IMG/VR virus record: IMGVR_UViG_3300037479_000144
Location: 1-26,005 of that record
Reading direction: 5' to 3' (one strand)
Origin: a virus
Lineage: Duplodnaviria; Caudoviricetes
DNA: 26,005 nucleotides
The position numbers and the translations under genes are program-made. How positions within the stretch are numbered: the first letter of the stretch is position 1; each line of letters opens with the position of its first letter. Of this stretch, positions 1,015-24,993 are shown piece by piece. The notes beneath the pieces are model-generated. The model was not told the origin of the DNA, did no database searches, and saw nothing but the letters and a program-made list of their open reading frames with translations.

Positions 1015-2103
1015 AACTATATCAACAGTACCTACACCGTTTGTCACAACCCATGTAGTATTTTCAACAACACATAATAATTCTAGAGAAGCTTTAGAAG
1101 AATTTGTATTAGTTAATTCCGTATCAATTCTTCCGCTTGTACCTGCTGTTGTTGATAGTCCCAAATAATGTATCTGCTGTGAAGCATTTTGAGATATTCT
1201 CCAGCCCCCAGCACCAAAACCAGCAACTTTGATAATTGTCCCTAATGCTGCCGTACTTGGTAACGTTAGAGTTACTAAAGCAGCATTATTTGCAATATAT
1301 CCGTTATCAGCAGTCATTGCTTGTGTAGTGCCTGTTACATTGTTCCAGGTAAAATTAGAGCCACCCGAAACACTCGACCACGTACCATCACCACGTAAAT
1401 AGGTTGATGAGGTGGCAGTACCACTACCCAATCTAGAAGGTGCAATTATACCTGATGCAATTTCTGATGCATCAATACTGGTATCACCGATCGATATCCA
1501 ATTAGAATCCGTTGAGGCGGGGGTAGCTGATAGAATGTAACTGATTCCATTGTCAGTTTGTTTTGCTATATCACCTATTTGAACATCGGTTAATGCCAGC
1601 CTAGCCGCTTGATTAGCTACTACTTGAATGCTAGTAATGGCGATATTAGGAATGATAGAAGGATCAAGCACACCCCCGCTTTGTAATACAGGTATGTCAC
1701 CTACTGATGAACCCGTATTTAGTAAAGCCGCGCTACCTAAACCTAGCATACTTCTAACTGTTGAGGAGTCCACCGCCTCAATAGAACCCGTACCAGCGGT
1801 GTTACGACCTAATAGAAATCCACTACTGATATTTTGCATTTTTGCAAAAGTTACAGTATTTAGGGCGATCGTTGGATTTGGGTAGGTACCAGTCAGATCA
1901 CCACCCGCATTACCACCCGGCGTGGGATTCCCCCATGTTGGAATTGTGCCAGAGCTAAGCAGGGCTTGCCCCGATAAACCTATACCCAATCTATCTAAGT
2001 TTCCTGATGAGTTTCTGTAATAAATATCACCTTGGGCATCAGAACCTAGAACGGTCTTAATATTACCAACTAACGTATTATTCCAGCTATTTTGAAAAGT
2101 CAT
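1012..2103 (-). CDS. Tail fibre protein
   Basis: 363 aa, rich in G/S/T/N, with fibre-type motifs GGDLTGTYPNPTI, LGLGSAA, SSTYLRGDGTW and LTLPSTAALG; adjacent to the Gly-rich gene. Confidence 0.7.
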   Translation of the reverse strand: MTFQNSWNNTLVGNIKTVLGSDAQGDIYYRNSSGNLDRLGIGLSGQALLSSGTIPTWGNPTPGGNAGGDLTGTYPNPTIALNTVTFAKMQNISSGFLLGRNTAGTGSIEAVDSSTVRSMLGLGSAALLNTGSSVGDIPVLQSGGVLDPSIIPNIAITSIQVVANQAARLALTDVQIGDIAKQTDNGISYILSATPASTDSNWISIGDTSIDASEIASGIIAPSRLGSGTATSSTYLRGDGTWSSVSGGSNFTWNNVTGTTQAMTADNGYIANNAALVTLTLPSTAALGTIIKVAGFGAGGWRISQNASQQIHYLGLSTTAGTSGRIDTELTNTNSSKASLELLCVVENTTWVVTNGVGTVDIV

Positions 2104-2564
2104 TATAAAACCTCGAAATTACCTATTATTTCAGTTGCTACCCATTCATCAATAATGTACTCAAGTCTGAGATAATCACCTAAATCATAAGAGTTGATTG
2201 CACCCGCCACACCTAGAGTAGTTGTCGTGTTGCCTAATCTGATTCTATGGGACATATCAGATTGCTGAATTTTAAAACCAGCAATACCACTATTTTTAAA
2301 TGCTAATACACTCCCATCTAATGGGGTTTGTGTAGGCAGGGATAGGATTATTCTGCTTATATCATTCCGGCAATCATACCCATAGTTGAAAGTGATAATT
2401 GAGTTATTAATTCGTATAACCCATAGTAGTTGATCGCCCTGGTTCCCATTGTTATTATTGATTACAAAGACTTTAACTAATTCTGCCGTTTTGCATTCGC
2501 ATAATAATTCAGCAGATTTTTTGTTTTCTAGTAGATTCGCATTAAATGATTCAGTAATTGTCAT
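2103..2564 (-). CDS. Putative tail-fibre-associated protein
   Basis: 153 aa with AGGA RBS; its C-terminal half resembles the C-terminal domain of 1012..2103; 1-nt stop/start overlap with that gene. Confidence 0.6.
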   Translation of the reverse strand: MTITESFNANLLENKKSAELLCECKTAELVKVFVINNNNGNQGDQLLWVIRINNSIITFNYGYDCRNDISRIILSLPTQTPLDGSVLAFKNSGIAGFKIQQSDMSHRIRLGNTTTTLGVAGAINSYDLGDYLRLEYIIDEWVATEIIGNFEVL

Positions 2565-2578
2565 CCAAATTCCTGGGT

Positions 2579-2920
2579 CTAAGTTATTTGAGTTATCCTC
2601 TTTATTATCTGAATTTTCCCTCCTACAGCATAAAATCTATTACCCGTCGTACTGCTAGCAAATAAGACATCATATTGATAATTTCCTGCGATAATATCAA
2701 CTGGATAATCATTGAAAGCAATTGATATAGTAAACAAATCTTTGCTCACTATATGAACTCTAGGCGATAGAATTACTAGGTTTGATTGGTTATTGGTTCG
2801 GATTTGACAGTAGCCGGAATACCCGTCTGATAAATCAGGCGCATTACATAATTTGAAAGATGCTTCATAATTAGCACCTATCTCAATTGAATTATCATTA
2901 ATCAGATCGATTATCACCAT
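2579..2920 (-). CDS. Putative virion structural beta-sandwich protein
   Basis: 113 aa; pattern IEIGANY...YSGYCQIR...GNYQYDVLF...GKIQI is common in small phage baseplate/fibre-associated proteins. Confidence 0.55.
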   Translation of the reverse strand: MVIIDLINDNSIEIGANYEASFKLCNAPDLSDGYSGYCQIRTNNQSNLVILSPRVHIVSKDLFTISIAFNDYPVDIIAGNYQYDVLFASSTTGNRFYAVGGKIQIIKRITQIT

Positions 2921-2949
2921 TACATGAATCTCTTCTCTAGTAAAGCAGC

Positions 2950-4362
2950 TTAACCATTGCTACTTAGTAGCCAATTATATTCATTTGTCACATAATCATA
3001 AATACCGCTTATACAGTCTCCCAAATCTGTTACCAACGGTTGCCTTTTATTAGAAAATTTAGTAATTAATTTGCAAAATTGATCACGATCTCTCATCCCC
3101 GCCTCAATCATCAAATCACCTGCACACATGGCATTCCCTGCTGGAATGGCGCGTTTGACTTTATCTATAGAAGGCCTATATCCAAATACCTGAAAAATAC
3201 CTTTTTTGATTAGCCTATCTTGCATGATTGCTACATATTTCTCACCCGTTGATCCAGGTTCTAATTCGATCAATTGCACCGATTTAGAACCATCAGCAAG
3301 CGCTAATCTTTCAATTTGTGCATCACCTTCTAATGGTGATAATTTCTCAGCTGTCCAATCAACGATGGACATTTTATTGGTATTCAGAATATATCTAATC
3401 TTGACTGATGCAGAATAGTACAGACTATCATTTTTATCATCGTCGTCATCGGATGCGGCTAGATCGTGATATCTAAATTCAATGTATTGCCAGGATGTTA
3501 GGTCGCTAGTATCAATAAATTGGAAATCCTTAAATATTTTTCCCCCTTGGCTGTAATCGCTTGGCTCCGCATCCAATTCTTCACTAGCGCGATTTCCATA
3601 CATTTTGTAGATACCACTAACCCATTCTTCTTCTTTTTCTATTGACCATACATCCTTTTTCTTTGCACAAACCCGCTTAAATAATCCCTCTTTAACAGCT
3701 TGCTTGAAACTAACTCTATGATGTGTGTATGGCAGATTACCCGCTTTTACACTTTCTATTAAATGATTGAAATCGCTATCAATACCCGCATGAGTTGAGA
3801 GTACTCTGATAGTACCACCGTGAATAATTGCAGCTAAACCAGCAGCTAGAATATCATCCAATGAATCAGCACGATAAGCCGCTTCATCAATGTAGATATC
3901 CCTACCAGAATATGATCTGAGATTGACCGCATCCCCCGCTAAACCCGTAATAGTTCTACCGTTTAAAAATCTAATTTCAAATATGTTTAAGTCTCTCTCG
4001 TTGACTACTTCCTGATAAGAAATAATTTCAAATATAGTATTAAATGTTCGGGCCCAATATGCCGCATCTTTGATAAATTGCTTAACGGCTGCTTTATTGT
4101 AACTGGATACAATACTATCTCTCTGGTTGCTAACTGCTCTAAAAGATGCCCTAAAAGCATAAGAAAAAGATGCCCCAATTTGTCGACCTTTTTCAACAAT
4201 TGAGACTAATGATTCATCAGTAACTAGTGTATTTTGATATGGGCAAAAAATGGGTATTCCTTGCCAAAAAGTCTCATCAACAAGATCTATATTTGTCTCT
4301 TGTTTATTATTTAAATTTTTCTTAATTAAATCACCCGTATTTATTATCAAACCTTTAAGCAT
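2950..4362 (-). CDS. terL: Terminase large subunit (Mu gp28-like ATPase plus RNase H-like nuclease)
   Basis: Walker A region EKGRQIGASFSYA, Walker B IYIDEAA, coupling motif VLSTH, C-terminal nuclease motifs RYHDLAAS and DLGDCISG. Confidence 0.9.
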   Translation of the reverse strand: MLKGLIINTGDLIKKNLNNKQETNIDLVDETFWQGIPIFCPYQNTLVTDESLVSIVEKGRQIGASFSYAFRASFRAVSNQRDSIVSSYNKAAVKQFIKDAAYWARTFNTIFEIISYQEVVNERDLNIFEIRFLNGRTITGLAGDAVNLRSYSGRDIYIDEAAYRADSLDDILAAGLAAIIHGGTIRVLSTHAGIDSDFNHLIESVKAGNLPYTHHRVSFKQAVKEGLFKRVCAKKKDVWSIEKEEEWVSGIYKMYGNRASEELDAEPSDYSQGGKIFKDFQFIDTSDLTSWQYIEFRYHDLAASDDDDDKNDSLYYSASVKIRYILNTNKMSIVDWTAEKLSPLEGDAQIERLALADGSKSVQLIELEPGSTGEKYVAIMQDRLIKKGIFQVFGYRPSIDKVKRAIPAGNAMCAGDLMIEAGMRDRDQFCKLITKFSNKRQPLVTDLGDCISGIYDYVTNEYNWLLSSNG

Positions 4363-5022: not shown

Positions 5023-5544
5023 ATGCCAAAAATTAACATTAAACCCCGAACAGGAAAAGACTTTTTTGAATTCACACAAAGAACTATTATCAATACCAAA
5101 TTAGCCCAAGAATGGGCTATAGAGCAATTTGTCTTGATCGATGATCGGCCAATAACAATAGAGGAAATTAGCCGCCTGAAAACAGATATTTATATCAAAT
5201 TAACTAGTAGTATTTTTACTAACAACATCACCCCCGCCTCTGAAGACAACACAGGAATAGAAATAGAGGGAAACTACATAAAAATAAAACGTTTATCTAG
5301 AGATTTTGTAGCTGAATTGCAAGCTGTTATAAAAATAGCTAATGGTAACACATTAAAAATCATGAAATACTGTTTGACAGAATTTTATGATATTAGTGTT
5401 TCCGAATTGGAAAATATGCCCTATCAAGTAGCGGCTTATTTATTTAATAAAATCAACTTTTTTCTTGGGGAATTGTCCGAATTTAATGACGAATTTTATA
5501 TTGATGAGCTATTCGATCCAGATCCCGGATCAGTTATCGCCTGA
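5023..5544 (+). CDS. Probable tail assembly chaperone
   Basis: 173 aa immediately upstream of the tape measure gene; ISVSELENMPY...INFFLG ending resembles P2 GpE / Mu gp41-type chaperones. Confidence 0.65.
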   Translation: MPKINIKPRTGKDFFEFTQRTIINTKLAQEWAIEQFVLIDDRPITIEEISRLKTDIYIKLTSSIFTNNITPASEDNTGIEIEGNYIKIKRLSRDFVAELQAVIKIANGNTLKIMKYCLTEFYDISVSELENMPYQVAAYLFNKINFFLGELSEFNDEFYIDELFDPDPGSVIA

Positions 5545-5626
5545 CGCTTGGATCTATTGGTATAAAGAAGCAATTAAATTTGTTAAAAAGCAAATAAAGC
5601 AGCAGCAGCAACAAAAACAACATTGA
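5459..5626 (+). CDS. GpE'-like frameshift extension of the tail chaperone (or a 46-aa ORF from ATG 5486)
   Basis: The +1 frame is open from 5432 to TGA 5624-5626 and reads ...IPDQLSPDAWIYWYKEAIKFVKKQIKQQQQQKQH; T-run TTTTTTC at 5458-5464. Confidence 0.55.
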   Translation, partial: FFLGNCPNLMTNFILMSYSIQIPDQLSPDAWIYWYKEAIKFVKKQIKQQQQQKQH

Positions 5627-5711
5627 GATTGAGGCGGGGAGATGGTTCTTCTGGTAAAGCTGCTTTACTAGGGACAACAAAAACAAAATTGAGATTGAGG
5701 CGGGGAGATGG
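5609..5711 (+). repeat. 37-bp direct repeat x2 (1 mismatch) flanking a 29-bp spacer that contains palindrome A
   Basis: CAACAAAAACAA(C/A)ATTGAGATTGAGGCGGGGAGATGG at 5609-5645 and 5675-5711. Confidence 0.9.
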
Positions 5712-7681
5712 CAACTGAAGTTATTAATGTGGTGTTGCAATTAGTAAATAATTTTACTAAAGGGATTGATCAAGCCACTAGCAAAGTAGTCAGCTTTAAA
5801 AATAGAGTTGATACCCTTGCGGGTGCTTTCACCCCGCTTTCTATTGCTGCGGGTGCTGCTTTAGGTGTATCTACCAAACTAGCAGCCGATTTTGATAAAT
5901 CGATCCAGGGTGCGGTTAGAGGATTGGATCTAGCCGCTAATGAGGTAGAAGGATTTAGGAAATCTGTAAGACAATTATCAGCCGATCTACAATATCAATT
6001 CTCGTCGACTGAATTGGCTAATATCGTTACAGAGGCGGGTAAATTAGGGGTTGCCAAATCTGATGTAGATGATTTTGCTAAAATCATGGCAAAAGTAGCG
6101 GTAGCTACTGATCAGAAAGAAAATATAGAAAAAATATCAAGTAATGCTGCAAAAATAGCCTCAGTTTACAAATTCAATACAAAAGCAACAGAGGAATATT
6201 TAGCAGCAGTTAACAAATTAGATGATGCCACATCAGCAACATCTAATGAGATATTAAATTTTACTCAGAGGGTATCAGGATCGGCTAGTTCTGCCAAAAT
6301 TGCTGGTACTCAGATCGCTGCTTTTGGCGCAACTTTAATCAGTTCCGGTAAAGCACCAGAAACAGCCGCGACATTTATGAATAAATATTTATCTGTTTTG
6401 GGTGCTGCTACTAACTTAAGCGAGCCAGCACAAAGAGCATTATTAAAAATAGGTTACTCAGCTACCGATTTGTCAAAGAGATTTGATAAAGATGCGATCG
6501 GTACAATGCAAGAATTTCTAAACCGCATTAAACAGTTAGATACTGTTACTCAACGTGAGATTTTAGGAAGAATTTTTGGGCAGGAACACGTAGGATCCGC
6601 ACAATTGTTGGTGCAACAAACGGATTTATTAGCTAAATCTTTACAAGAAGCAGGAAACACCACAGGTAACATTAATAAGCTTAATAGTGAATTTGATAAA
6701 TTTGCTAAAAATTCTTTTCAAGGACAGATGAACGCTTTTAATAATTCATTAGGTGAATTAGGAATAACCATCGGTACGGCTATTTTACCTGGATTAAATA
6801 CTCTACTACAAACTGCTATTATACCCTTTGTAAAACACATCTCTGCATTGGTTGATCAATACCCCCAATTGAGTACTTTTATAGCTGCATTTTTGGGTAT
6901 CACAGCAGCTATTGCCCCATTCTTAATGTTAGTATCAGCTATTGGTAGTTTCATAACGGCTGTTCCTATCTTACTTGGTGGAATTACTGCTGTAGGTGTG
7001 GGTCTATGGGCGGCATTAGCTCCACTATTACCGATAATTGCAATAATAGGTGCGATCGCCGGTGCAGCTTATCTGATATACAAAAACTGGGAACCTATAA
7101 AGGGGTTTTTTACAGGTTTATGGAATAGTGCGTATAAATCAGTTTCAGATTTTGTCAGTAATGGTATTAATAAAATAGTAGAGTTTGGTAATTGGGTAAT
7201 AAGTCTAGATAGAAAATTCAGGGAAGCGGCTATTAATTGGGGTAGAGGATTGATCCAAGGGTTTATTGATGGATTGCAATCGATGTACGGCAATATTCAA
7301 TCAGCTATGGATAACTTCACTAAGTGGTTGAGGCAGTATCTACCCTCATCTGATGCCAAGAAGGGGGCATTGTCAGATTTAACAGCTAGCGGTCGTAGTA
7401 TGGCTGAAACTTTTATGAATGGTGTTAATAGCTTTGATTTAAACAGAGGTATTAACAATCAATTGGCTAATAGAGGCGGGGTGGGTGTTGGAGGATTGCA
7501 ACCAGCACCGATCTTTAGTAGAAATTCGGCAACCCCCGCCTCTAATAACACTTACAACATTAACTACACTATTAATGGTGGTGGTAATGATGATTTAGTT
7601 AAGCAGCTTAAACAGAGGGATAGAGATTTATTAGACATAATTAATAAAGGCAATCAGCGAGTTAACAGGAGAACGTATTAA
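5708..7681 (+). CDS. Tail tape measure protein (TP901-type core)
   Basis: 657 aa, Ala-rich and helical, with AADFDKSI, ELANIVTEAGKLGV and LGRIFGQEH, then a hydrophobic segment and IYKNWEPIKGFFTGLW repeats. Confidence 0.92.
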   Translation: MATEVINVVLQLVNNFTKGIDQATSKVVSFKNRVDTLAGAFTPLSIAAGAALGVSTKLAADFDKSIQGAVRGLDLAANEVEGFRKSVRQLSADLQYQFSSTELANIVTEAGKLGVAKSDVDDFAKIMAKVAVATDQKENIEKISSNAAKIASVYKFNTKATEEYLAAVNKLDDATSATSNEILNFTQRVSGSASSAKIAGTQIAAFGATLISSGKAPETAATFMNKYLSVLGAATNLSEPAQRALLKIGYSATDLSKRFDKDAIGTMQEFLNRIKQLDTVTQREILGRIFGQEHVGSAQLLVQQTDLLAKSLQEAGNTTGNINKLNSEFDKFAKNSFQGQMNAFNNSLGELGITIGTAILPGLNTLLQTAIIPFVKHISALVDQYPQLSTFIAAFLGITAAIAPFLMLVSAIGSFITAVPILLGGITAVGVGLWAALAPLLPIIAIIGAIAGAAYLIYKNWEPIKGFFTGLWNSAYKSVSDFVSNGINKIVEFGNWVISLDRKFREAAINWGRGLIQGFIDGLQSMYGNIQSAMDNFTKWLRQYLPSSDAKKGALSDLTASGRSMAETFMNGVNSFDLNRGINNQLANRGGVGVGGLQPAPIFSRNSATPASNNTYNINYTINGGGNDDLVKQLKQRDRDLLDIINKGNQRVNRRTY

Positions 7682-8067: not shown

Positions 8068-9726
8068 ATGGCTACTCTTTACTATCCAAGATTTGAGATT
8101 AAAATAAATGGTTTTGACATTAGTAAAACAATTGCACCTTATTTAGTTTCTATTACCATTGAAGAGGTTTTTAATACTAGTTTTACACCAACAAAATTGG
8201 AATTAATTTTCCATAGTAAATACACCAGATCAACCGCTTGGCAATATAAAGATACAATAACCGTAAAATTATGGTGGGAACCTTTGATATTATTTGTATA
8301 TCAATCTCCTACATTTTATGTAGATTACATTGATGATATTAAAAATGGAGGCGGGGATCAGTTATTCAGAGTTTCGGCATTAGCAGCGGATCCTAGTCTA
8401 GGTTTTACCTATGGTTTCAATCAGCTGACTTATACTAATACCACAATAAGCACGGCCGTAACTAATTTCGCTTCTGCATTTGGTTTAACACTTGTTCAAA
8501 ACTTCGCCTCTAATGTGTATCTAGGAACTATAAAAGATATTAATAATATCAATCCGCCAGATGTTAATTTATGTAGAATTTCATTTAATTCTTATGCAGA
8601 TATGCTTAAATATATCTGCGATACATATGGTTATTATGGGGATTTAAGAGGCACAACATTACGAATGTTCGATATCGGGACAGCTGTTAGTGATGTTACC
8701 AGATTTTATATTTGGGATTTTGGCGAAATATTCGGATTTAATGCTAAACAGAGTTATACCCAGCTTTATAAAGAATATAATATTTTTTATATTAATCGTG
8801 ATAATGCTAATGCATACTCTATCGCGTTGTCCCGACCTACACCATACACACAATTGAATAATAAAGTTGATAATATAGATTTTAATGATGCTTATAACAA
8901 TATAGAATCGGCAACACGTAGATTACGAGCCAGAATTTTACAAGATTATTTAGAAGGTTTTGAAGTCACTATTAATTCATCTGGATTGCCAGAATTTACA
9001 GCAGGTAATGTGTTTTTATTAAATCCTGATTATGGTAGTCATGCTGGTTTCTATCGATGTACTAAATGTATACATAGAGTTGATGGGAGTAATGGATGGA
9101 TAAGTGAACTAACAGGCTATCCTATATCAAAGGTTTCCGCTGATTTTGCAACATTCACTGTAGCTTATTTGGGTAATACTAGGCTTCCAGATCCAAAAGA
9201 CACGCTAACAATATCAACTAATATTAAAGGCACACTTAGTTTATTAACAGGAACACAACTAGATCAATATGCAAAAGCATTAAATCCTAACTATAATCAA
9301 AATTTAGGTAATACTTTTATTACGGAGGGTAATAAATCTGGTAATAAAATTAGAGCCGATATAGCATTTTGTATAGCATTATATGAAACAGTAAATTTTA
9401 CTAATAAAGATTTATTAGATACATTCAATCCTTTATTTGTTGGCACTGTAGATAATGTAAATATACCCTTTAATTACATCAATTGGGCTAATGGTGTTAG
9501 AGGCGGGATCCAACATTTGTATGCTTTTGCCACACCTGGAACAACCCCTCCAGCAGATCCGATTATAGACCCCCGTTTCAATTATGTTACTCGTGGAAGC
9601 GCGACTACCGTAGACGCACTACAAGGTAAATGGACTAATAATCTAGACTTTAGCAGATTTATTAAAGCTCTAATGTTTGGACTTTATTCCAAGTTTTACC
9701 CCAAAAAAACAATTGACATAAGTTGA
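8068..9726 (+). CDS. P2 GpD-like baseplate hub fused to a C-terminal glucosaminidase-like domain
   Basis: N-terminus PRFEIKINGFDISKTIAPYLVSITI...GLPEFTAGNVF...GFYRCTKCIHRV is GpD-like; C-terminus ADIAFCIALYET...GVRGGIQHLYAFA...IIDPRFNYVTRG...LQGKW resembles GH73-type peptidoglycan hydrolases. Confidence 0.75.
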   Translation: MATLYYPRFEIKINGFDISKTIAPYLVSITIEEVFNTSFTPTKLELIFHSKYTRSTAWQYKDTITVKLWWEPLILFVYQSPTFYVDYIDDIKNGGGDQLFRVSALAADPSLGFTYGFNQLTYTNTTISTAVTNFASAFGLTLVQNFASNVYLGTIKDINNINPPDVNLCRISFNSYADMLKYICDTYGYYGDLRGTTLRMFDIGTAVSDVTRFYIWDFGEIFGFNAKQSYTQLYKEYNIFYINRDNANAYSIALSRPTPYTQLNNKVDNIDFNDAYNNIESATRRLRARILQDYLEGFEVTINSSGLPEFTAGNVFLLNPDYGSHAGFYRCTKCIHRVDGSNGWISELTGYPISKVSADFATFTVAYLGNTRLPDPKDTLTISTNIKGTLSLLTGTQLDQYAKALNPNYNQNLGNTFITEGNKSGNKIRADIAFCIALYETVNFTNKDLLDTFNPLFVGTVDNVNIPFNYINWANGVRGGIQHLYAFATPGTTPPADPIIDPRFNYVTRGSATTVDALQGKWTNNLDFSRFIKALMFGLYSKFYPKKTIDIS

Positions 9727-13951: not shown

Positions 13952-13975
13952 TTGTTGATTGAGGCGGGTATTATA

Positions 13976-14540: not shown

Positions 14541-14786
14541 ATGATCAACCCTCTTACAGAACCCCAACCCCCGCCTCTGAAAAACAATTATCCTTATTCA
14601 ATCGATGGGGTGATCAAAGATCTGACTGATCGAAAAAATTTTGGTATGAATAAATATGGAACAGCTTTACAACCTAACAACGGTAGAAATAATCTGATCG
14701 ATAGCTATCAAGAATTAATGGATTTGTTGGTGTATTTGCGTACTGAAATTAACGAAACATTTACAGAACCTACTGAGTTGTGGTAA
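14541..14786 (+). CDS. Conserved small phage protein, possibly MazG-like nucleotide pyrophosphohydrolase fold
   Basis: RKNFGMNKYGTALQPNNGRNNLIDSYQELMDLLVYL with an ExxD motif; next to dCTP deaminase. Confidence 0.5.
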   Translation: MINPLTEPQPPPLKNNYPYSIDGVIKDLTDRKNFGMNKYGTALQPNNGRNNLIDSYQELMDLLVYLRTEINETFTEPTELW

Positions 14787-15447: not shown

Positions 15448-15480
15448 AACCCCCGCCTCTGTTTGGAAGCGGGGGTTTTT
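15448..15480 (+). terminator. Rho-independent terminator between convergent dcd and DNA polymerase
   Basis: AACCCCCGC-N12-GCGGGGGTT followed by a T-tract; palindrome A follows at 15484-15498. Confidence 0.8.
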
Positions 15481-15499: not shown

Positions 15500-17455
15500 C
15501 TAGTATTTAGGACATTTCTCAAACTGTTCCCACATGGTTTGTACCATCGTTACGTAGTAACTCCAATCGATACGACTAGGATCACTAGTCCACATTACCT
15601 CTGTTTTTTTGAGTACTTGGCCACGTTTACCATACAAAACCTTATCACGCTCTTTGTAAATGGTTATTACATCTCCCGGTTTACCTAATCCTAATTCCAC
15701 AACCCTAGACTCATTAGCCTTGATTTTGCGGTTTATGGCTAATTTTTCCACTGGGTAAGTACCCATTAAAAGTTGAGTTAGTATTTCCTTGTAGTATGCA
15801 TCATGTTTTCCCTCCAAATAGTGCTTAATCAACTCAGGGATAAACGATCGCTCTAAGTGGCATTTATCACGCTTAACGAATTTACCTTTGGCTTTAACTT
15901 TTACCTCATTCGATTTTTTATCAAAATAGACATAAACATAATTTTTGCGCAACCCCTCTTTTGAGTCATTTTCATTGGGTGGGCAATACATGGCAAGTGC
16001 TTCTAATTCATATTCTAGGATTATTGATTTTGGCATTTTAGATTGGCAATATTGCCAAGCGGCTTTATTTTTAGCAAAAGTAGGATCATCGGATGCGAAA
16101 TAAATCCCATCAGTGTCAACGGAAGCATTTATCATGCCGCATTCTTCTAGTGCTGACATCATACGCTTTAGGATCGCCCTACCGTGTGCAGTCACTCCGG
16201 CACCCGCAATAAAATCATTGTATTCAATAAATCCAGTTGATAGGAAACCATAACCGCTATTGATGAGTACCTTTAATGCACCCTGAGTCTGTTTAGCTTG
16301 CATTCCTTCGGGTGTTCCTTTTTTCTCCTCAGCTATAGCTTTTAATCTTAATCTCTCAGTTCTGAGAAATCGTAAAACAGATAGACAATGTCTATCGGGG
16401 TCTTTATCGGAACAAATCCCATATAGCAGCATAATAGAAGGATAAAGGCTGGCTACATCGATTTTAGCAATGTTTCTGAATAAGCCAGGTTTGGAACCTG
16501 TCAACCCGCCTACAAATGTTAGTTTAGGTGATGTTTGAGGCGGGGGTGATCCCTTTCTGTTGTAGTGTTGTTTTAGAATATCATTCCATTTGGAGCCATT
16601 TCCGCTACTAGCTAATGATTGTAAATTCCAATCAGGCAAAATTAATTTTTGATAGTAGATATCAGGTAATAAAAAATCACCTATTGCTTTTGTGGCTTTT
16701 AAATCTGATTCTAGATACTCTATTAGTAACTCTTTGCCATTCACACCCTTCGTAGGCGATCTCACATCCCAATTAGCGATCGCTTGCTGCATCTGAGGAT
16801 ATGATAATTCTATGGGTTTATCGTTCTCATATCCTGGTAAACTTAATTGATTAGGTATATATTTCAAACCGTATCTAGTTAATTTGTGATTGACATAATC
16901 CCATGCTAGAGTCTGGTGAAATAGGTCTATTATTGCTGTTTCGCCCCTATTTAACCAAATATCATTATATTCTACTGGTACAGAAAATTGCTGTGCGGTT
17001 CTAAATATCTTTGTCCTTTCATGATTGATATAGAAAGGTATGTGGTTACTAGGTATACCTAGTAACCGCATCCTTTTAATCAAAAAAGGTAAGTCAAATT
17101 TAAAGCCGTTGAATGTTAGTAATATTTCTGGTTTTTTCTTTCCTAGTATCTCTAAAAATGTCAAGATGCCATTTAACTCACCATTGGATTTGCAATCTAT
17201 GATGTGACTCTTACCTCTCTCATTCATCAGACCTATCAGAACAACCTCATCTGAGTCTGGATCTAATCCGGTTGTTTCAATATCTAAATAAAGTTTAGAT
17301 ACTTGCTCTAATGGCTTTAATGTAATTGCAGGTTTCCATTCGGGTATGAATGTGTCGTCATACTCATAGATATTTATATCATCCTCGTTGATGGTTACAG
17401 TTTTGTCAGTAACTTTTGCAAGTCTTCTGAATTGTTGCAATTGTTTTGTAAGCAT
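15500..17455 (-). CDS. Family B DNA polymerase with 3'-5' exonuclease
   Basis: ExoI LYLDIETTG, ExoII FNGFKFDLPFL, ExoIII YLESD; Pol motif A DVASLYPSIM, B KVLINSGYG, C VDTDG. Confidence 0.95.
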   Translation of the reverse strand: MLTKQLQQFRRLAKVTDKTVTINEDDINIYEYDDTFIPEWKPAITLKPLEQVSKLYLDIETTGLDPDSDEVVLIGLMNERGKSHIIDCKSNGELNGILTFLEILGKKKPEILLTFNGFKFDLPFLIKRMRLLGIPSNHIPFYINHERTKIFRTAQQFSVPVEYNDIWLNRGETAIIDLFHQTLAWDYVNHKLTRYGLKYIPNQLSLPGYENDKPIELSYPQMQQAIANWDVRSPTKGVNGKELLIEYLESDLKATKAIGDFLLPDIYYQKLILPDWNLQSLASSGNGSKWNDILKQHYNRKGSPPPQTSPKLTFVGGLTGSKPGLFRNIAKIDVASLYPSIMLLYGICSDKDPDRHCLSVLRFLRTERLRLKAIAEEKKGTPEGMQAKQTQGALKVLINSGYGFLSTGFIEYNDFIAGAGVTAHGRAILKRMMSALEECGMINASVDTDGIYFASDDPTFAKNKAAWQYCQSKMPKSIILEYELEALAMYCPPNENDSKEGLRKNYVYVYFDKKSNEVKVKAKGKFVKRDKCHLERSFIPELIKHYLEGKHDAYYKEILTQLLMGTYPVEKLAINRKIKANESRVVELGLGKPGDVITIYKERDKVLYGKRGQVLKKTEVMWTSDPSRIDWSYYVTMVQTMWEQFEKCPKY

Positions 17456-17584: not shown

Positions 17585-17622
17585 AAACCCCGCCTCAGCA
17601 TCTTTTTGGTAGAGGCGGGGGT
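17585..17622 (-). terminator. Hairpin made of two GAGGCGGGG copies, downstream of the helicase
   Basis: CCCCGCCTC (17588-17596) / GAGGCGGGG (17612-17620); short T-tract on the minus strand. Confidence 0.6.
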
Positions 17623-17628: not shown

Positions 17629-19311
17629 TCAGATATCTAGTAACTTTTCTACCAGTCGTTGATAGAATTTACTATCAAGTTTATCGGGGATGATTCCGAT
17701 TTTTTCGTTGATAACTCTATTAATATTGGTTGATTTCTGATTGTTGATGGTAGCCATCACGAAATCAACATCTTTTCCAAACACATTGTAAATTGTACAA
17801 TTTTCATTTTGCCCTATTCGATGGATACGATCGGTTGCTTGCGTGTATAGTCCAGGATTCCAAGGAAAATCATTCATCACTAGATAATTGGCTCGTGTTA
17901 ACGTGATCCCTACGCCACCGGCAGCTATCGACCCAATAAAAACTAAATTTTTACCTGATTGAAAATCATCCACCATTTGCTGACGATCTTCTAATTTAGT
18001 ATCCCCATTGAGCGATTTTACATTGAAGTGTGCAGCAATCCGATCTGCTGATTCCCTAAATTCTGTGAAGACTACGACAGGTAACCCCGCATCAACCATT
18101 GACTGAACAGTATTTATAGTTTGATAAGACTTGTAAATACTGGCTGATCTGCGCAAGTGACCTAGTGTAACCAGTGCTTCAGCTTGTAAACTAACCTCAC
18201 CTTTGCTTGCTCTTTCCAGATAGCTTTTTTTAAGCTGCTTAACCGTCTCATCGTATTCATCCTCAGCAGCTTTATTTGGCTCACAGAAAATATCAACAAT
18301 TGTTTTTTCTGGAAGATCAATACATTCCTCTTTTCGGTGCTTTATGAGCTTATCTGATATTCGTTCTGATAATTCCTCAGAATTGATTGATCCTGTAACA
18401 TCCCAAGGGGTAAAAGCGGTGGGTTTCGCATCACAATACCTTATGTCGTAATACTTTTTAGAATCCGCCACAGGATGCTTAACAGCTTTGAGTAGTGGGT
18501 ACAATTCCGAATGTCTACCGTTCAGCATTGGTGTCGCTGTCATCGCCATGACACTTACGCAATTATGGTCAGCAGCCAATTCTAGAAATTTTTTGGAACG
18601 TGCCGAGGCGGGGTTTTTATATACATGTGCCTCATCGGCAATCAGTATGTATTTTTTGTTGATTGGCGCTTTTGGTGTTTTGGCATGAGAAAAAATCTCT
18701 AGCCGTAGCTTCACTTTCTCCGCCTCTATTAGCCAATTGAGTTTCAGCGAAACCGGACAGACAACTATGATTGACAACAATTCTCCATACTCAAATCTGT
18801 AAAAGTCTCGGATTGCTTTTGCAGATATCAAAGCGGATAATGTCTTACCCAATCCCGGATCATCGCTGATAATGGCAGATAAATTGGGCTGATTCAGGAT
18901 GAAATTGATTGTTTCCCATTGGTGAAGATAGGGTGTGAAGTTCCATTCCTCGGATTCAGATTCTAGATGCTCGAAACACCAGTCTACACGGTTTTCTATT
19001 TTCTCCTTGACTAACCGCTTCTCTTCTCTAATGGTTTCCAAATACTGGTCTAGCGCATCTGTAATTACAAACCCAAAAGGAATCAGTACATCTATTAATT
19101 TTTCTACACACTGAGACCCAAACAGCCAGTATTTGTTATGCGAATTTTCGGCAACAAAGTAACCGCCGTGAACACCTTTGACAGCTTTGTAGACATCAGT
19201 ATCATAATCGAATTTGACCTTTATCTTTTTGTCAGCGGTTATGTCAATGATTCTGGTATTAGAGGCGGGTTTATCTAGGTGGGATGTTGATTGCATGGTT
19301 TTGTCTCTCAC
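17629..19311 (-). CDS. SNF2-family (SMARCAL1/HARP-like) helicase/ATPase
   Basis: DDPGLGKT, VVCPVSL, DEAH, MTATP, GITLT and QATDRIHRIGQ motifs; N-terminal IKVKFDYD...KYWLF HARP-like segment. True start may be ATG 19296. Confidence 0.92.
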   Translation of the reverse strand: MRDKTMQSTSHLDKPASNTRIIDITADKKIKVKFDYDTDVYKAVKGVHGGYFVAENSHNKYWLFGSQCVEKLIDVLIPFGFVITDALDQYLETIREEKRLVKEKIENRVDWCFEHLESESEEWNFTPYLHQWETINFILNQPNLSAIISDDPGLGKTLSALISAKAIRDFYRFEYGELLSIIVVCPVSLKLNWLIEAEKVKLRLEIFSHAKTPKAPINKKYILIADEAHVYKNPASARSKKFLELAADHNCVSVMAMTATPMLNGRHSELYPLLKAVKHPVADSKKYYDIRYCDAKPTAFTPWDVTGSINSEELSERISDKLIKHRKEECIDLPEKTIVDIFCEPNKAAEDEYDETVKQLKKSYLERASKGEVSLQAEALVTLGHLRRSASIYKSYQTINTVQSMVDAGLPVVVFTEFRESADRIAAHFNVKSLNGDTKLEDRQQMVDDFQSGKNLVFIGSIAAGGVGITLTRANYLVMNDFPWNPGLYTQATDRIHRIGQNENCTIYNVFGKDVDFVMATINNQKSTNINRVINEKIGIIPDKLDSKFYQRLVEKLLDI

Positions 19312-19371: not shown

Positions 19372-19398
19372 AAACCCGCATCTATCTGATGCGGGGGT
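19372..19398 (-). terminator. Terminator-like hairpin
   Basis: CCCGCATC (19375-19382) / GATGCGGG (19388-19395), followed by TTTCTTATTT on the minus strand. Confidence 0.65.
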
Positions 19399-19433: not shown

Positions 19434-20660
19434 CTAGAAATCTTCTAATCCGGAACCTGCAAGTACAGGATACACACCATTCACATCTTCGTAGTCTTCT
19501 TTTGTGGCTTCTCTAATGGTTTCTTGAGCGGATGCTGGCAACTGCTTAGATTGCATTTTATCTTTTATCGCTCTGTAGATTTCCTGTAGATGAGGGAAAG
19601 TTGCGATTTTGGCCAAAATCCTTGGTTCTAGCGCGGTAACGGTATTTACAGGTGAATTTGTGATTTTGATCGCGCTAGGTTCGACAATGTGGATTAGCAT
19701 TATCTGATTGTCGAAATATGTATTATTCACCAACCACGTGTAACCCTCATTCTTAACCATTGCTGATGTAAATTGTATGTCTGTTGCATCGGCAAGCGTA
19801 ATGTATTCGTACTCTTTATTAGAGTTTTTCCAGTTGATAATCAACTCAGGGTGACTGCTTGCTATAATTTCCCAGCTGCTTTGTACAATGTCTGATTTTA
19901 TATTTTCGTAAGTACCAGCAGGTGTAATTTTGATAGCTCCATTCTTAACTAGGAGCAAAATCCCGCCTCTAGGAAAAGATTTAGATTGAAAGGAAGGAAC
20001 AAAAGCCTTATTACACTCAATCCATAGGCGGCTATTTCTTTGATTAACGTCTCTACAAACATCAGCAAACTTACCAGATCGCCAGAATTTAATGATATCG
20101 CTAGGCTGGTAATTAGCTTTTTTATCTACTAAAAAAGGAAAGCTAAAATTGATGGTTTTCAGATCTTCAACATATTCTAGATTAATGTAGAATTTTCCAG
20201 TACCCTTACCTTCATTATCAACCTGTTCTATTAGTTCGATCGGAGTACCATTAATAGTGTACTCAAACTCTGTAACAGTCTTTTTCCCGCGCTTCTTTTC
20301 TACTTGATCAACTTCACAGGGAATAAAAAGATCCTGTGTTTCAATATTGAATCGATCGGTGGTTGTCCCGATTAACAAACCTAGTTGACCATCACGTAAA
20401 CCTAGATAACAGGGTGAATGATAATTGAAGACATCGTTAGAATAATACGCAAAACCCATATTATTAATATCTGTGGGTTTTATTTCGATAGCAGACAAAA
20501 ACATATTAAATTGATACAGCTCTGTTTCTTCCACATTTTCAGGCAATACCAGAGTTTTGACACGATTACCAGAATTAATAGAATACTGATTATGGATGTA
20601 AGGATAATCAGAATTAGCAACAGATTGGAAAAGGTTAGACAAACGGATTGAAGAAACCAT
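19434..20660 (-). CDS. Hypothetical protein in the replication module
   Basis: 408-aa ORF with its own promoter and terminator; acidic C-terminus ending in Phe. Confidence 0.8.
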   Translation of the reverse strand: MVSSIRLSNLFQSVANSDYPYIHNQYSINSGNRVKTLVLPENVEETELYQFNMFLSAIEIKPTDINNMGFAYYSNDVFNYHSPCYLGLRDGQLGLLIGTTTDRFNIETQDLFIPCEVDQVEKKRGKKTVTEFEYTINGTPIELIEQVDNEGKGTGKFYINLEYVEDLKTINFSFPFLVDKKANYQPSDIIKFWRSGKFADVCRDVNQRNSRLWIECNKAFVPSFQSKSFPRGGILLLVKNGAIKITPAGTYENIKSDIVQSSWEIIASSHPELIINWKNSNKEYEYITLADATDIQFTSAMVKNEGYTWLVNNTYFDNQIMLIHIVEPSAIKITNSPVNTVTALEPRILAKIATFPHLQEIYRAIKDKMQSKQLPASAQETIREATKEDYEDVNGVYPVLAGSGLEDF

Positions 20661-20848: not shown

Positions 20849-22537
20849 CTACTTGTCGATCAATTTACTTATCAAGTATTCTAAAGCTGCGTCGTTCAGA
20901 GTCACCCCGGTTTCTTCTTTCCATGCTTTTCGGATATGCTCCGAATTGGGATATCTGCCATATTTTTCAAAGCAAGTATCCATCCATTTTTTGATTTTGG
21001 TGTAAATTTCTTCAATATTAGAGGCGGGGGGTTGGGGTTGTTGTGGTTCCTGTGGTTGTTGTGGTTCCTGTGGTTGCTCTGGTTCCTGTGGTTGTTGTGA
21101 TTGCTGGGGTTGTTGGGGTTGCTGTGATTGCTCTGATCTTAATTTTTGTACGATAGCCTCGACATTAAACTCCGGTATGATCGCTACAAAGGGATTGCCT
21201 CTGGTAGGTCTAACCAGGCAGTATCGTAATCCCTCTTTCTGAAACAATTCACACGTTTGTTGCAGTACTGTTAAATACTCCTCAGAAATGTTTCTAACAT
21301 AGTTCGATCGATTTTTGGCATCTAATATGTACGAGGATGTTTCGCCCATAGCTATAAAGCAAGTATTATTCATAGCGGGCAAACTAAAGCCAGTATCACC
21401 GCTTAATGGTGATTGCCCCATAAAGATCCCGTGTCCCTTTGCACCAGCTAGGTTAGTGGTGATGAACAGCCATTGCGCTTGTGCCGCTACGGCGCAATCA
21501 GAATCTATATATTTACCATATCCCTTACCCTTACCGTATACGGTGTTATGTTCATCTTGTAATAAGATCAACTCTCTTACACCTTCACAACTCCCCCCGC
21601 TTTCCGAAACTAAATCTAGCTGTTCACTAGCTAGCGTTTCCATCAATTCAATCCAATTTTCTGTATTTTCATAACCATCGACTTTATATGTAAAGTCACA
21701 CAACCACCGGGTTATATCCTTTTTACCTGGTTTTTTCTTAGCGTCATGCACGGCTATTACAGCAGGTGATTGAGATCGACTAGCTATCCCATTAGCGATT
21801 ACACCCGCCAACGTGCTTTTACCAGCTTGTGTTTCGGCCACAATCATAAAATGGTGGTTAGCACGTTTTGACATCGGCATTGCTGATGATGATTCTATGA
21901 GATCGTCTATCCATTTATTGTCTATGCGTACATAGTCAGGATATTTACTGGCCATCGCTTTAATCAAAGCGCTAGCAGTTTTGTTAATGTGTAGGTCTAA
22001 GATCTCACTATTAGGTTTTGCGATCGCCCGTTCTGCAAAATTATTATTATTGGCTGATTGTGGTTCTGAGGCGGGGGTTGCTTGCTGTAATACATTAGCT
22101 ATTAATCCAATGGGTAAATTATTTCGCTGTATGTATTCAGCCATAGCTTGAGGGTGAATACCGTTAATTTTTAGAAATTCAGCAATTGATACATCTTTAG
22201 TTACATCAAGGGTAAATTGTTGCTTGATGAAACGGTTTTTAGTTTCCAGTTTTTGAGTCTCGCGATTAAGCTGCAAATAAGCTTCATACCGATTTTCAAT
22301 ATCTTCCCTCGATTTGGCAACTATAGCCGATGCGAATCCGCCTATTGATCCCGCTAGCAATTGCAATAATTTATTTCCATCTGGTTGATTGGGTAAAAAT
22401 ATTGCTGTAGCTGGTAAGGTTACTGCGAAACTAGCAATAGCAGCGTTTATCAGTCGCTTTTGGACAACATCAAGGACTAATTCGTCTATTTCCTTTCCTA
22501 GGAAGAAACTACCATTTAGCAGATTTAATTTTTTCAT
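20849..22537 (-). CDS. Membrane-anchored P-loop ATPase, FtsK/HerA-superfamily-like
   Basis: Two N-terminal hydrophobic segments, a coiled coil, HFMIVAETQAGKST (Walker A), LILLQDE (Walker B), IFMGQ motif, Q/P-rich linker and a small helical C-terminal domain. Confidence 0.75.
   Translation of the reverse strand: MKKLNLLNGSFFLGKEIDELVLDVVQKRLINAAIASFAVTLPATAIFLPNQPDGNKLLQLLAGSIGGFASAIVAKSREDIENRYEAYLQLNRETQKLETKNRFIKQQFTLDVTKDVSIAEFLKINGIHPQAMAEYIQRNNLPIGLIANVLQQATPASEPQSANNNNFAERAIAKPNSEILDLHINKTASALIKAMASKYPDYVRIDNKWIDDLIESSSAMPMSKRANHHFMIVAETQAGKSTLAGVIANGIASRSQSPAVIAVHDAKKKPGKKDITRWLCDFTYKVDGYENTENWIELMETLASEQLDLVSESGGSCEGVRELILLQDEHNTVYGKGKGYGKYIDSDCAVAAQAQWLFITTNLAGAKGHGIFMGQSPLSGDTGFSLPAMNNTCFIAMGETSSYILDAKNRSNYVRNISEEYLTVLQQTCELFQKEGLRYCLVRPTRGNPFVAIIPEFNVEAIVQKLRSEQSQQPQQPQQSQQPQEPEQPQEPQQPQEPQQPQPPASNIEEIYTKIKKWMDTCFEKYGRYPNSEHIRKAWKEETGVTLNDAALEYLISKLIDK
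21031..21130 (-). repeat. Coding 9-bp tandem repeat (QPQ/QEP linker)
   Basis: About 11 imperfect 9-nt units encoding QSQQPQQPQQSQQPQEPEQPQEPQQPQEPQQPQP. Confidence 0.9.
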
Positions 22538-22911: not shown

Positions 22912-22941
22912 AAAAAACCCCGCATCCATAGAGGCGGGGGT
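22912..22941 (-). terminator. Rho-independent terminator
   Basis: CCCCGCATC (22918-22926) / GAGGCGGGG (22931-22939), followed by TTTTTT on the minus strand. Confidence 0.75.
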
Positions 22942-23749: not shown

Positions 23750-23826
23750 AAATCGCCATCATAAGTAAAAAGTAAAGAATTGGTAGTGTGATTAGTGAGA
23801 TAGAGATTAGATTGATCAACTCATTT

Positions 23827-24504: not shown

Positions 24505-24522
24505 CTGAATAATTCCTAAAAA

Positions 24523-24630
24523 CTTGCTTGACTTGCTTGACGAGTTTTTAAACTCGGTTCATAATATAAGGTTAACCATTTACACGCCGAATGTCAACCA
24601 TTTACACGCCATTTATTATCATTTATACTT
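24523..24630. promoter_or_regulatory. Divergent promoter region with direct-repeat operator candidates
   Basis: AACCATTTACACGCC at 24574-24588 and 24596-24610 (22-bp period) overlapping minus-strand TTGACA (24597-24592)-N17-TAACCT; also CTTGCTTGA x2 and hairpin CGAGTT-TTTA-AACTCG (24541-24556). Confidence 0.7.
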
Positions 24631-24690
24631 ATCAGCATCATTTTAAGTTTAAAATGGTGTATCAGTGATACAAACAATATTAGAGATATT

Positions 24691-24957
24691 ATGTCTAGAC
24701 AAAGATTAAACATTGAAATCAGCCTAAGTACATTAAGAAAACTTATACTTTGGGCATATACGAGGGATGAGAAAAAAAATTCCTGGGCCAGAACAGTTTT
24801 GATACTTAGATGCGATGAGAACGAAGAAAAGGTAAATAAATGGTTTGAGAACGAAGCGGGGCGGCTGGGTATAACAAAAGAAGAATTAGAAGATTATGTG
24901 CTGAAGAAAGAAGGATTCAACGTGGAGGAATACAAAAAAGAAATACGAGGAGAATAA
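24691..24957 (+). CDS. Small putative DNA-binding regulator (ribbon-helix-helix-like)
   Basis: 88 aa, divergent from the leftward operon; N-terminal RLNIEIS beta pattern followed by two predicted helices. Confidence 0.55.
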   Translation: MSRQRLNIEISLSTLRKLILWAYTRDEKKNSWARTVLILRCDENEEKVNKWFENEAGRLGITKEELEDYVLKKEGFNVEEYKKEIRGE

Positions 24958-24993
24958 AAAAACCCCCGCTACTCTATTGAGGCGGGGGTTTTT
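24956..24993. terminator. Bidirectional terminator between convergent genes
   Basis: A7-CCCCCGC-N13-GCGGGGG-T5; palindrome A follows at 24993-25008. Confidence 0.85.

Follow-up and report, generated by a model that had tools for sequence, protein, structure and literature searches.

The DNA uptake sequences (DUS) of Neisseriaceae and the uptake signal sequences (USS) of Pasteurellaceae are asymmetric words of 9–12 letters that occur about once per kb on both strands, also inside genes, and whose inverted pairs serve as transcription terminators. The stoperators of cluster A mycobacteriophages (the L5 gp71 sites) are phage-specific, asymmetric 13-bp sites found in some tens of copies genome-wide in temperate phages; most lie in the short gaps between genes, and they share one orientation with respect to transcription. 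Chénard et al. 2016 (mBio, PMC4916379) identified 43 motifs in phage A-1 and 21 in phage N-1 with PHIRE; according to the passages of that paper dealing with them, these motifs are unlike each other, asymmetric and oriented independently of genes, with a conserved 11-bp core in N-1, and are mostly intergenic, putative promoters or stoperators. Here, we analyzed a 26,005-base stretch of viral DNA (hereafter the window), which is the whole record for genome IMGVR_UViG_3300037479_000144, and describe a dispersed word, GAGGCGGG, found mostly in the nine-letter form GAGGCGGGG. The window belongs to the same phage group as A-1 and N-1, its family-B DNA polymerase (PolB) being 42–44% identical to theirs. 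Its word is another sequence, and most copies are genic, whereas the motifs described in those passages by Chénard et al. are mostly intergenic.

The exact count of GAGGCGGG gave 26 copies in the window, 17 on the plus and 9 on the minus strand, matching every coordinate listed in the initial annotation of this DNA. One hundred dinucleotide-preserving shuffles yielded a mean of 0.13 and a maximum of 2 copies, in line with the earlier estimate that base composition predicts less than one. The word was the top over-represented 8-mer of the window, and the top 9- and 10-mers were its extensions; the nine-letter form GAGGCGGGG was present in 20 of the 26 copies, the base 5′ of the word was A or T in 24, and the information content spanned about (T)(A/T)GAGGCGGG(G). 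Its density was 1.00 per kb, counting both strands and genic as well as intergenic DNA. Allowing up to one mismatch produced 41 matches compared to 1.44 expected, and the mismatches clustered at two places in the word, 8 of them at position 3 (G to T or A) and 6 at position 9. The variants GATGCGGG and GAAGCGGG were located at, or within 1–2 bases of, the places where they had been reported. The first 1000 bases of the window encode, on the minus strand, a glycine-rich tail-fibre-like open reading frame (ORF) with strongly strand-biased CCACCACC/GGTGGTGG runs (14 versus 1), which explain some of the one-mismatch near-words at 85–725.

Protein coding did not account for the word. Nineteen copies were genic, in five frame/strand combinations (8 sense and 11 antisense), and 7 were intergenic. 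The sense copies were read as E-A-G (four) and as R-G-G or G-G-G (four), and the antisense copies as P-A-S (seven) and in other frames (four), so that ORF mapping bore out the reading frames named before (EAG, RGG, GGG, PAS, TPPQ and PRL). Shuffling synonymous codons within genes (1000 times) gave a mean of 1.14 and a maximum of 5 copies compared to the 19 observed, and shuffling codons pooled over all window genes gave a mean of 0.78; the enrichment thus survived the codon-preserving shuffle that the initial annotation had proposed as a check. The word was encoded in 19 of 76 peptide contexts capable of it, including 7 of the 9 P-A-S contexts, and it employed minor codons of the window genome (GCC 16%, GCG 16%, GGC 10% and GGG 14%).

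Two close IMG/VR relatives of the window provided a second line of evidence. G002, 99.9% identical over 19 kb, contained 22 copies, and G001, ~93% identical, contained 31 copies in 25.4 kb; the reversed-pattern control was absent from both. Between the window and G001, 19 of 21 word sites were intact, whereas full conservation held for only 59% of 8-base windows overall (binomial P = 0.002). None of the 39 third-codon positions within the word differed, versus 888 of 6224 (14%) elsewhere (Fisher P = 0.0045), confirming the conservation at synonymous positions for which the initial annotation had suggested looking, and the 12 bases flanking the word showed 9.6% divergence. Taken together, these results indicated that the word is kept by selection, independent of protein coding.

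The copies outside hairpins are listed below with the orthologous sites in G425, a 55.8-kb IMG/VR contig with terminal repeats that carries a PolB 51% identical to that of the window and a syntenic homologue for nearly every window gene.

1514–1522, plus strand: GAGGCGGGG, antisense in ORF 1012–2103 (minus), P-A-S; orthologous G425 site GAAGCGGGGG
3097–3105, minus strand: word copy, sense, large-terminase ORF 2950–4362 (minus), E-A-G
5232–5240, minus strand: word copy, antisense, ORF 5023–5544 (plus), P-A-S
5631–5639, plus strand: word copy, intergenic, in unit 1 of a 66-bp tandem duplication
5697–5705, plus strand: word copy, intergenic, in unit 2 of the duplication, ending 2 bases 5′ of the ATG at 5708; may double as a ribosome-binding site (GAGG), judging from its position
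6032–6039, plus strand: 8-mer copy followed by T, sense, tape-measure ORF, E-A-G
7473–7481, plus strand: word copy, sense, tape-measure ORF, R-G-G
7534–7542, minus strand: word copy, antisense, tape-measure ORF, P-A-S; orthologous G425 site GAAGCGGGGG
8348–8356, plus strand: word copy, sense, ORF 8068–9726, G-G-G; orthologous G425 site GAAGCGGGGG
9500–9507, plus strand: 8-mer copy followed by A, sense, ORF 8068–9726, R-G-G
10331–10339, minus strand: word copy, antisense, protease-like ORF 9817–10758, T-P-P-Q
11440–11448, minus strand: word copy, antisense, major-head ORF 11374–12402, P-R-L
12184–12191, plus strand: 8-mer copy, sense, major-head ORF, E-A-G
13961–13968, plus strand: 8-mer copy, 5′ end of ORF 13952–14521, with an in-frame ATG 7 bases on
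14569–14577, minus strand: word copy, antisense, ORF 14541–14786
16537–16545, plus strand: word copy, antisense, PolB ORF 15500–17455 (minus)
18605–18613, plus strand: word copy, antisense, SNF2-type helicase ORF 17629–19311 (minus)
19262–19269, plus strand: 8-mer copy, antisense, helicase ORF 17629–19311 (minus)
19962–19969, minus strand: 8-mer copy, sense, ORF 19434–20660 (minus), R-G-G
21021–21029, plus strand: word copy, antisense, FtsK/TcpA-like ATPase ORF 20849–22537 (minus), in its disordered linker
22068–22076, plus strand: word copy, antisense, ORF 20849–22537 (minus); orthologous G425 site GAAGCGGGGG

The window has a G+C content of 37.6% and, by CheckV estimate, represents ~36% of the phage genome. 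PHROGs matches identified the large terminase, tape measure, head protease, major head protein and neck proteins, and also a dCTP deaminase, PolB and a helicase. The nearest named phages, A-1(L)/A1, N-1, Elbi, YongM, YongM2 and Dfl-JY23 (JY23), are myoviruses of filamentous cyanobacteria, and the window PolB is 42.5–44.4% identical to the PolB of A-1, N-1, Elbi, YongM and Dfl-JY23. PolB, the helicase and proteins of 562, 408, 146 and 153 aa are common to the window and the A-1/N-1 group, the 146- and 153-aa proteins being found in phages of this group only; together with the synteny with G425, they place the window in it. The lineage with GAGGCGGGG is known from metagenome contigs only.

The word GAGGCGGG was absent from 50-kb stretches of A1, N1, Elbi and Dfl-JY23, each of which had its own dominant word: TGACTCCGGGG in A-1, Elbi, Dfl-JY23 and YongM, and TGATTCCGGGG in N-1, with GAAGCGGGGG in the sister contig G425. 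The copies in the five complete relatives were counted as follows.

A1: GACTCCGGGG, 75 copies, 38 plus and 37 minus
Elbi: GACTCCGGGG, 87 copies, 42 plus and 45 minus
Dfl-JY23: GACTCCGGGG, 73 copies, 38 plus and 35 minus
N1: GATTCCGGGG, 79 copies, 41 plus and 38 minus
G425: AAGCGGGGG, 80 copies, 40 plus and 40 minus, 49 of the 80 as GAAGCGGGG; no copy of GAGGCGGGG

The densities in these five genomes were 1.05–1.43 per kb. The A1 word was also present in YongM and YongM2 (53 and 49 copies, respectively, in 43 kb), and the more distant contig G426 (76.5 kb, PolB 42% identical) had a word of its own, (T)ACCCTGGT. Every close or distant relative in the A-1/N-1 group bears its own word at equal density. 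Among loci of at least 9 kb on remoter PolB-bearing metagenome and viral contigs, no word was found outside those of G425 (L132) and G426 (L133); the top word of locus L135 was rejected as a dispersed word, as it is a ribosome-binding sequence. GANTC (as GACTC and GATTC) is part of the A-1 and N-1 words, as is CCGG, and CCTGG is part of the G426 word. Several DNA methyltransferases are encoded by the A1, N1, Elbi, JY23 and G426 phages.

The copies counted here as TGACTCCGGGG and TGATTCCGGGG probably represent the same motifs as those of Chénard et al., judging from the passages on these motifs, with totals of 75–79 here versus the 43 and 21 given there. Those passages contain no mention of absence from the host, strand-wise spacing or a concerted switch at orthologous sites. 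When the words themselves were sought in full-text literature, the matches listed were all unrelated primers or oligonucleotides, and a search for cyanophage stoperators returned only Chénard et al. and a Gordonia phage paper. Literature on primase recognition and on the phage names yielded nothing on these motifs, and in all the literature covered, without supplements or subscription journals, no description of intragenic copies, host absence, strand-wise spacing or a concerted switch was encountered.

Copies in the window were more evenly spaced than random, with a coefficient of variation (CV) of 0.58 (P = 0.003) and a largest gap of 2135 compared to 3726 expected, and the minus-strand copies taken alone had a CV of 0.34 (P = 0.003). 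The even spacing was lost with the looser definitions GCGGGG and GANGCGGG, indicating that the exact word is the unit. The five complete relatives were strand-balanced (G425 40/40, A1 38/37, Elbi 42/45, JY23 38/35 and N1 41/38), and orientation switched between neighboring copies more often than by chance (53/79 in G425, 49/74 in A1, 64/86 in Elbi, 48/72 in JY23 and 62/78 in N1; all P ≤ 0.005). Per-strand spacing in these genomes was regular, with mean gaps of 1.4–2.0 kb and CV of 0.42–0.80, and 9 of the 10 strand sets had P < 0.05. After removal of all copies with an opposite-strand neighbor within 100 bases, which filters out inverted pairs, alternation was retained by G425 and by the A1, Elbi and N1 stretches of 50 kb; no alternation was seen after this filter in the JY23 stretch, G426, the window or G001. 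Because two regular combs of equal period interleave automatically, the per-strand regularity is the underlying property, and it points to a reader of one strand or a machine moving in one direction.

Comparison of orthologous sites showed conservation of position alongside a change of word. Of 57 A1 sites compared with N1, 32 fell in unaligned DNA; among the 25 alignable ones, the N1 word stood at the equivalent position in 16, within DNA of only 66–79% identity, one kept the A1 word, three had near-variants and five had no word. When A1-type phages were aligned with N1, three sites in PolB and three in the helicase shared their columns; the A-1 PolB gene contains four copies. Of the 16 genic window sites that mapped onto G425, 4 (1514, 7535, 8348 and 22068) bore the G425 word at the same codons, one was a partial copy, two had a copy within 30 bases and the remainder were lineage-specific; window sites mostly lay off the A1-type site positions. 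Orthologous sites differed between lineages by the same single letter and switched word in concert.

We then compared the word with cyanobacterial genomes. HIP1, the highly iterated cyanobacterial palindrome GCGATCGC, was present in 6 copies in the window (4395, 4497, 7052, 13849, 16776 and 22020) versus 0.11 expected, which fits a cyanobacterial host; relatives had 27–35 copies per 50 kb and phage CL131 had 104 per 50 kb, so that HIP1 is a host-like signature borne by these phages. Cyanobacterial genomes were reached through a CRISPR-repeat pattern (short palindromic repeats, clustered and regularly interspaced), and the 401 genomes obtained are an even sample of their phylum. The pattern WGAGGCGGGG, with 18 occurrences in the 26 kb of the window (~690 per Mb), had at most 64 copies in each of the 401 genomes, with a maximum of ~16 per Mb, near the reversed-pattern control, the true host possibly being unsampled. 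In five cyanobacterial genomes of 5.7–9.4 Mb, GAGGCGGGG occurred in 0–46 copies, mostly near the reversed-pattern control; the clearest excess was 40 versus 22. The A-1/N-1 word TGAYTCCGGGG had 0–7 copies per genome in 23 cyanobacterial genomes, among them 18 of the genus of a Trichormus-titled genome and others titled Dolichospermum, Anabaena and Nostoc. Matching 1529 spacers from 122 cyanobacterial CRISPR arrays against the window and its relatives produced only chance matches of 15–17 letters. The word is thus absent, beyond background, from the sampled cyanobacterial genomes and is not a host repeat in them; the initial annotation had regarded equal abundance in the host chromosome as refuting a phage-specific signal, and the background level in all 401 genomes runs counter to that alternative. 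Its proposal of a phage-specific DNA signal, as opposed to a protein or composition effect, is supported by the codon shuffle, the synonymous conservation, the absence from the 401 sampled cyanobacterial genomes and the relatives' own words in the same layout.

The initial annotation had also described five terminator-like hairpins. All five inverted pairs of the word or its variants folded as hairpins (z between −2.0 and −4.5), a terminator-like scan detected two of them as well, and T runs followed three; 5 of the 26 exact copies lay in these structures.

Hairpin 1, 15448–15477: exact copy at 15451–15459 (minus) and variant GAAGCGGGGG at 15466 (plus), followed by a T run; the dCTP-deaminase and PolB genes converge on it
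Hairpin 2, 17588–17620: exact copies at 17588–17596 (minus) and 17612–17620 (plus), 10-bp stem; between the PolB and helicase genes
Hairpin 3, 19375–19395, minus strand: two variant arms GATGCGGG, then a T run on the minus strand
Hairpin 4, 22918–22939: variant GATGCGGGG at 22918 (minus) and exact copy at 22931 (plus)
Hairpin 5, 24958–24993: exact copy at 24979 (plus) and CCCCCGC at 24965, with runs of A and of T at the flanks

In hairpin 1, the C-arm of the window is perfect and its G-arm is GAAGCGGGGG, and the arms are swapped in G001, a compensatory exchange that preserves a G-U pair in the RNA stem. Hairpin 5, located between the convergent ORFs 24691–24957 (plus) and 25009–25470 (minus), folds on both strands and is therefore likely to be a two-way terminator, as predicted from its sequence.

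Since related viruses carry different words in the same pattern, the word is likely a signal for the virus's own DNA-copying machinery. The reading that we prefer, and hold at somewhat less than even confidence, is that the word is a replication signal, read by strand and linked to the primase-helicase, whose inverted pairs have been reused as terminators. According to this model, GAGGCGGG(G), a lineage-specific word that selection maintains at ~1 per kb inside genes as well as on both strands, is likely read strand by strand by replication proteins of the phage itself. The primase-helicase, as the predicted reader, would load or start lagging-strand synthesis at the word, and inverted word pairs would act as predicted transcription terminators. 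Of the functions suggested in the initial annotation (translocation, recombination, priming and coating), the spacing in relatives and the co-variation with the primase-helicase lean to priming or replication. A broader and more doubtful version, possible in our view, is that phages like A-1 and N-1 carry a distributed address code: each would have its own 9–11-letter word every 1.4–2 kb per strand, maintained at a rare-codon cost, and the whole set would change with the primase-helicase. Such a code would amount to sequence-programmed lagging-strand initiation, and possibly to a kin tag between co-infecting relatives, with GAGGCGGGG as one dialect.

A phage-encoded reader is the economical inference because the A1 and N1 records name the same host strain, their words differ and the sampled host-like genomes lack them; we infer that this factor reads the word strand-specifically and that it is the primase-helicase. 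Among 47 Elbi ORFs of at least 150 aa, ranked when matched in all three other phages, the primase-helicase had the lowest ratio of N1 identity to A1 and JY23 identity (0.33), whereas PolB, the helicase, the 562-aa protein and the 408-aa protein gave 1.0–1.16. The C-terminal half of the N1 primase-helicase (L007, 46094–48832) was 10–25% identical to the type found in A1, Elbi, JY23 and YongM and had no close relative in 50,697 phage records. This half weakly resembles ‘virulence-associated protein E’ genes of streptococcal satellite phages. All five of the five phages checked with an A1-type primase had the C-word (TGACTCCGGGG type). G425 encodes an 841-aa primase with DUF5906 and a parvovirus-NS1-like SF3-helicase P-loop, and a search of viral contigs for further carriers of this primase family returned only G425 itself. 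Hence, in the A-1 group, word type appears from these sequences to track primase-helicase type.

Several observations weigh against this model. The co-variation with the primase reflects one evolutionary event (N1), in which half the primase was replaced and the word changed by only one letter, a relation that a reader other than the primase would explain no less well. G426 has its own word and no detectable homologue of this primase family, and no primase gene was found in the window, that is, in ~36% of the genome. Known primase recognition sites have 3–5 letters, compared to 9–11 here. In the window, the plus-strand copies alone were only weakly regular (CV 0.67, P = 0.07), orientation did not alternate (12 of 25 switches, P = 0.55) and the strands were imbalanced at 17:9, whereas the five complete relatives are balanced. 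Finally, the word is over-represented 3–4-fold in intergenic DNA, with 7 of 26 copies in the ~8% that is non-coding, which would fit a regulatory protein too.

Such a protein is the first alternative: the word could be a double-strand DNA binding site for a small phage protein, either a stoperator-kind regulator or a genome organizer, for instance the 153-aa protein (25009–25470, minus), a possibility that we regard as unlikely. Stoperators were proposed for the A-1/N-1 motifs by Chénard et al. in the passages cited above, and an intergenic excess was found in the 50-kb stretches of A-1-like phages (24–31 of 55–63 copies) as well as in the window (7/26). The 153-aa protein has homologues in A1, N1, Elbi, JY23, G425, G426, YongM, YongM2 and A-1(L), that is, in every word-bearing genome examined, and among 50,697 phage records the family is restricted to the seven cyanophages of this list. 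Its language-model look-alikes are helix-turn-helix families at 0.86–0.88, which are leads only, and it has a weak Pfam FUR-like match; the putative helix-turn-helix protein, named as a possible reader in the initial annotation, accordingly stays a candidate. However, orientation should be irrelevant to a double-strand site, yet copies in the five relatives are balanced, alternating and regular per strand. The sites are also independent of transcription direction (8 sense versus 11 antisense), with most window copies genic, and neither a repressor nor an integrase was recognized in the ~36% of the genome covered by the window. Nor does similarity of the 153-aa protein follow similarity of the words, the window protein being 36% identical to that of G426, with an unrelated word, versus 26% to that of G425, with a word one letter different.

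A Chi-like signal seems a little less likely again. Under this explanation, the word would stop or redirect a helicase-nuclease entering from a DNA end, sparing or recombining phage DNA and leaving wordless DNA to be degraded, and would serve as a self or kin tag. The word has suitable features, being G-rich, asymmetric and 8–9 letters long, the largest gaps between copies are small, and RusA and exonuclease genes are present in relatives; that A-1 and N-1 share a host strain in the records and differ in word would fit kin discrimination. Passages of a preprint by Shi et al. (2026) describe genomes of the A-1/N-1 group as circularly permuted via headful packaging and as containing a ~30-kb invertible segment, so that a signal in either orientation everywhere fits such genomes. 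Against it, host RecBCD or AddAB is an unlikely reader because the sampled host genomes are not enriched in the word, and no RecBCD-, AddAB- or NurA-like nuclease was found beside the word-bearing genes. The neighboring 408-aa protein (model with a predicted local distance difference test score, pLDDT, of 77, beta-rich) had no Pfam family and no structural match in the PDB at E ≤ 0.001, and the FtsK/HerA-like 562-aa ATPase does not track the word.

The 562-aa protein (20849–22537, minus) had itself been named as a possible reader in the initial annotation. It is predicted to be an FtsK/TcpA/HerA-like ATPase, with two hydrophobic N-terminal helices in a long helical region, a P-loop domain similar to that of the coupling protein TcpA and to the motor of FtsK (Foldseek E of 1e-5 and 8e-5; template-modelling scores by target of 0.48 and 0.39), a disordered linker rich in Pro and Gln, and at the C terminus a small helical domain. 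A full-length homologue is present in A1, the family is also represented in phage CL131 and in records for Nostoc, Nodularia and Chlorogloeopsis, and the YongM protein at the same gene-order position was annotated by its depositors as ‘DNA translocase FTSK’. Homologues of the 562- and 408-aa proteins with 70–76% identity (P0002, P0003, P0086 and P0087) are encoded on contigs of 49.8 and 51.4 kb. As a reader it looked a poor candidate: Aphanizomenon phage CL131 has the family and no asymmetric word in the 50 kb examined, a both-strand word was found in 1 of 28 viral contigs with the family (G425), and the C-terminal domain groups Elbi with N1, away from A1. In two IMG/VR contigs with the family (L239 and L246), one-strand-only repeats of 16–21 copies were observed, e.g. 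GGGACTGGG and TCCTGCAAG, which are probably arrays of some kind.

Molecular drive has been proposed for HIP1 in cyanobacteria, and a word that is read by nothing could likewise spread by biased repair or gene conversion, which we consider quite improbable here. HIP1 itself is enriched in these phages, and a concerted one-letter change at many orthologous sites is the expected product of a templated process; however, even spacing, strand balance and alternation are not expected from drive acting on any near-match, one-mismatch variants are undepleted (21 observed, mostly at positions 3 and 9), and site positions are kept across DNA only 66–79% identical. Least probable is that the copies are only terminator-stem halves or their decayed remnants: five hairpins do form from the word or its variants, three with T runs, but only 5 of 26 exact copies lie in them, and this reading as a complete explanation is largely refuted by the 19 single genic copies, the codon shuffle and the conservation at synonymous positions.

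Other repeats were also observed in the window. A second dispersed motif, (T)AGTAAAGCAGCTT(T/A)A(C/T)C, had 14 copies, seven per strand, at 1001, 2943, 5657, 7601, 9729, 10761, 12658, 15487, 17486, 18232, 19419, 22948, 24300 and 24998. Ten of these were intergenic at gene boundaries, and several adjoined word hairpins; from its placement it looks like a promoter or operator element separate from GAGGCGGGG. One copy sits between the two units of the 66-bp tandem duplication (5606–5707) upstream of the tape-measure gene, in which a word copy closes each unit and where G001 has a third word copy. At ~25925–26005, degenerate GCGACGAGTT-like tandem repeats with a unit of ~10–11 bases reach the contig end and may represent an origin, packaging or end region.

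If the strand-read replication model is true, these phages use a private word to programme the starts of DNA synthesis, or the sites of another strand-reading machine; the word would constrain coding in most of their genes, and its ~80 sites would evolve together. It would be a new kind of genome-wide phage signal and would account for the A-1/N-1 motifs of the model Anabaena phages, and the word would provide a simple sequence marker for sorting metagenomic contigs of the group by lineage. A-1(L), N-1 and Elbi grow on Anabaena sp. PCC 7120, making the reading directly testable. Where these phages are engineered against cyanobacterial blooms, recoding of genes could destroy words.

Among known systems, DUS and USS resemble the word in density, presence on both strands, use of several gene frames and inverted pairs as terminators. 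The likeness to uptake sequences drawn in the initial annotation therefore holds for behavior and fails for membership: DUS and USS mark the genome of a competent cell, whereas no sampled cyanobacterial genome was enriched here and relatives whose records name one host strain differ in word. The description of intrinsic terminators, a G+C-rich inverted repeat with a T run at gene ends, applies to the five hairpins only and does not cover the 19 genic copies. Compared to L5-type stoperators, 19 of 26 copies are genic, 8 sense and 11 antisense, and the window has no recognizable repressor or integrase. Chi sites of RecBCD and AddAB are likewise short, G-rich, asymmetric and read from one side, and S. 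aureus Chi, GAAGCGG, resembles the G425 word; however, Chi is enriched in the chromosome of the host and aligned with the direction of replication, whereas the word here was absent from the sampled host-like genomes and interleaved on both strands. The FtsK-orienting polar sequences (KOPS) and SpoIIIE recognition sequences (SRS, GAGAAGGG) are G-rich 8-mers read by an FtsK-type pump, and the window has a gene for an FtsK/TcpA-like ATPase. KOPS and SRS show a strong strand skew in the direction of the terminus, whereas the word is balanced or interleaved, with no such polarity in the window or its relatives; among 28 viral contigs encoding this ATPase family, just one has a both-strand word, and no tracking of the word was seen in the C-terminal domain. 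In other systems, a replication protein that the phage itself encodes recognizes a short, specific sequence in DNA. Known primase sites of 3–5 letters occur without marked enrichment, and the phage P4 alpha primase-helicase binds octamer iterons that are clustered at the origin and not dispersed. The word differs from such primase and initiator words (T7 gp4, P4 alpha and SF3-helicase initiators) in its 9–11 letters and dispersed placement; it resembles them in that relatives encode a large primase with an SF3-type P-loop, a link suggested by sequence comparison, and its per-strand spacing of 1.4–2 kb is on the scale of Okazaki fragments.

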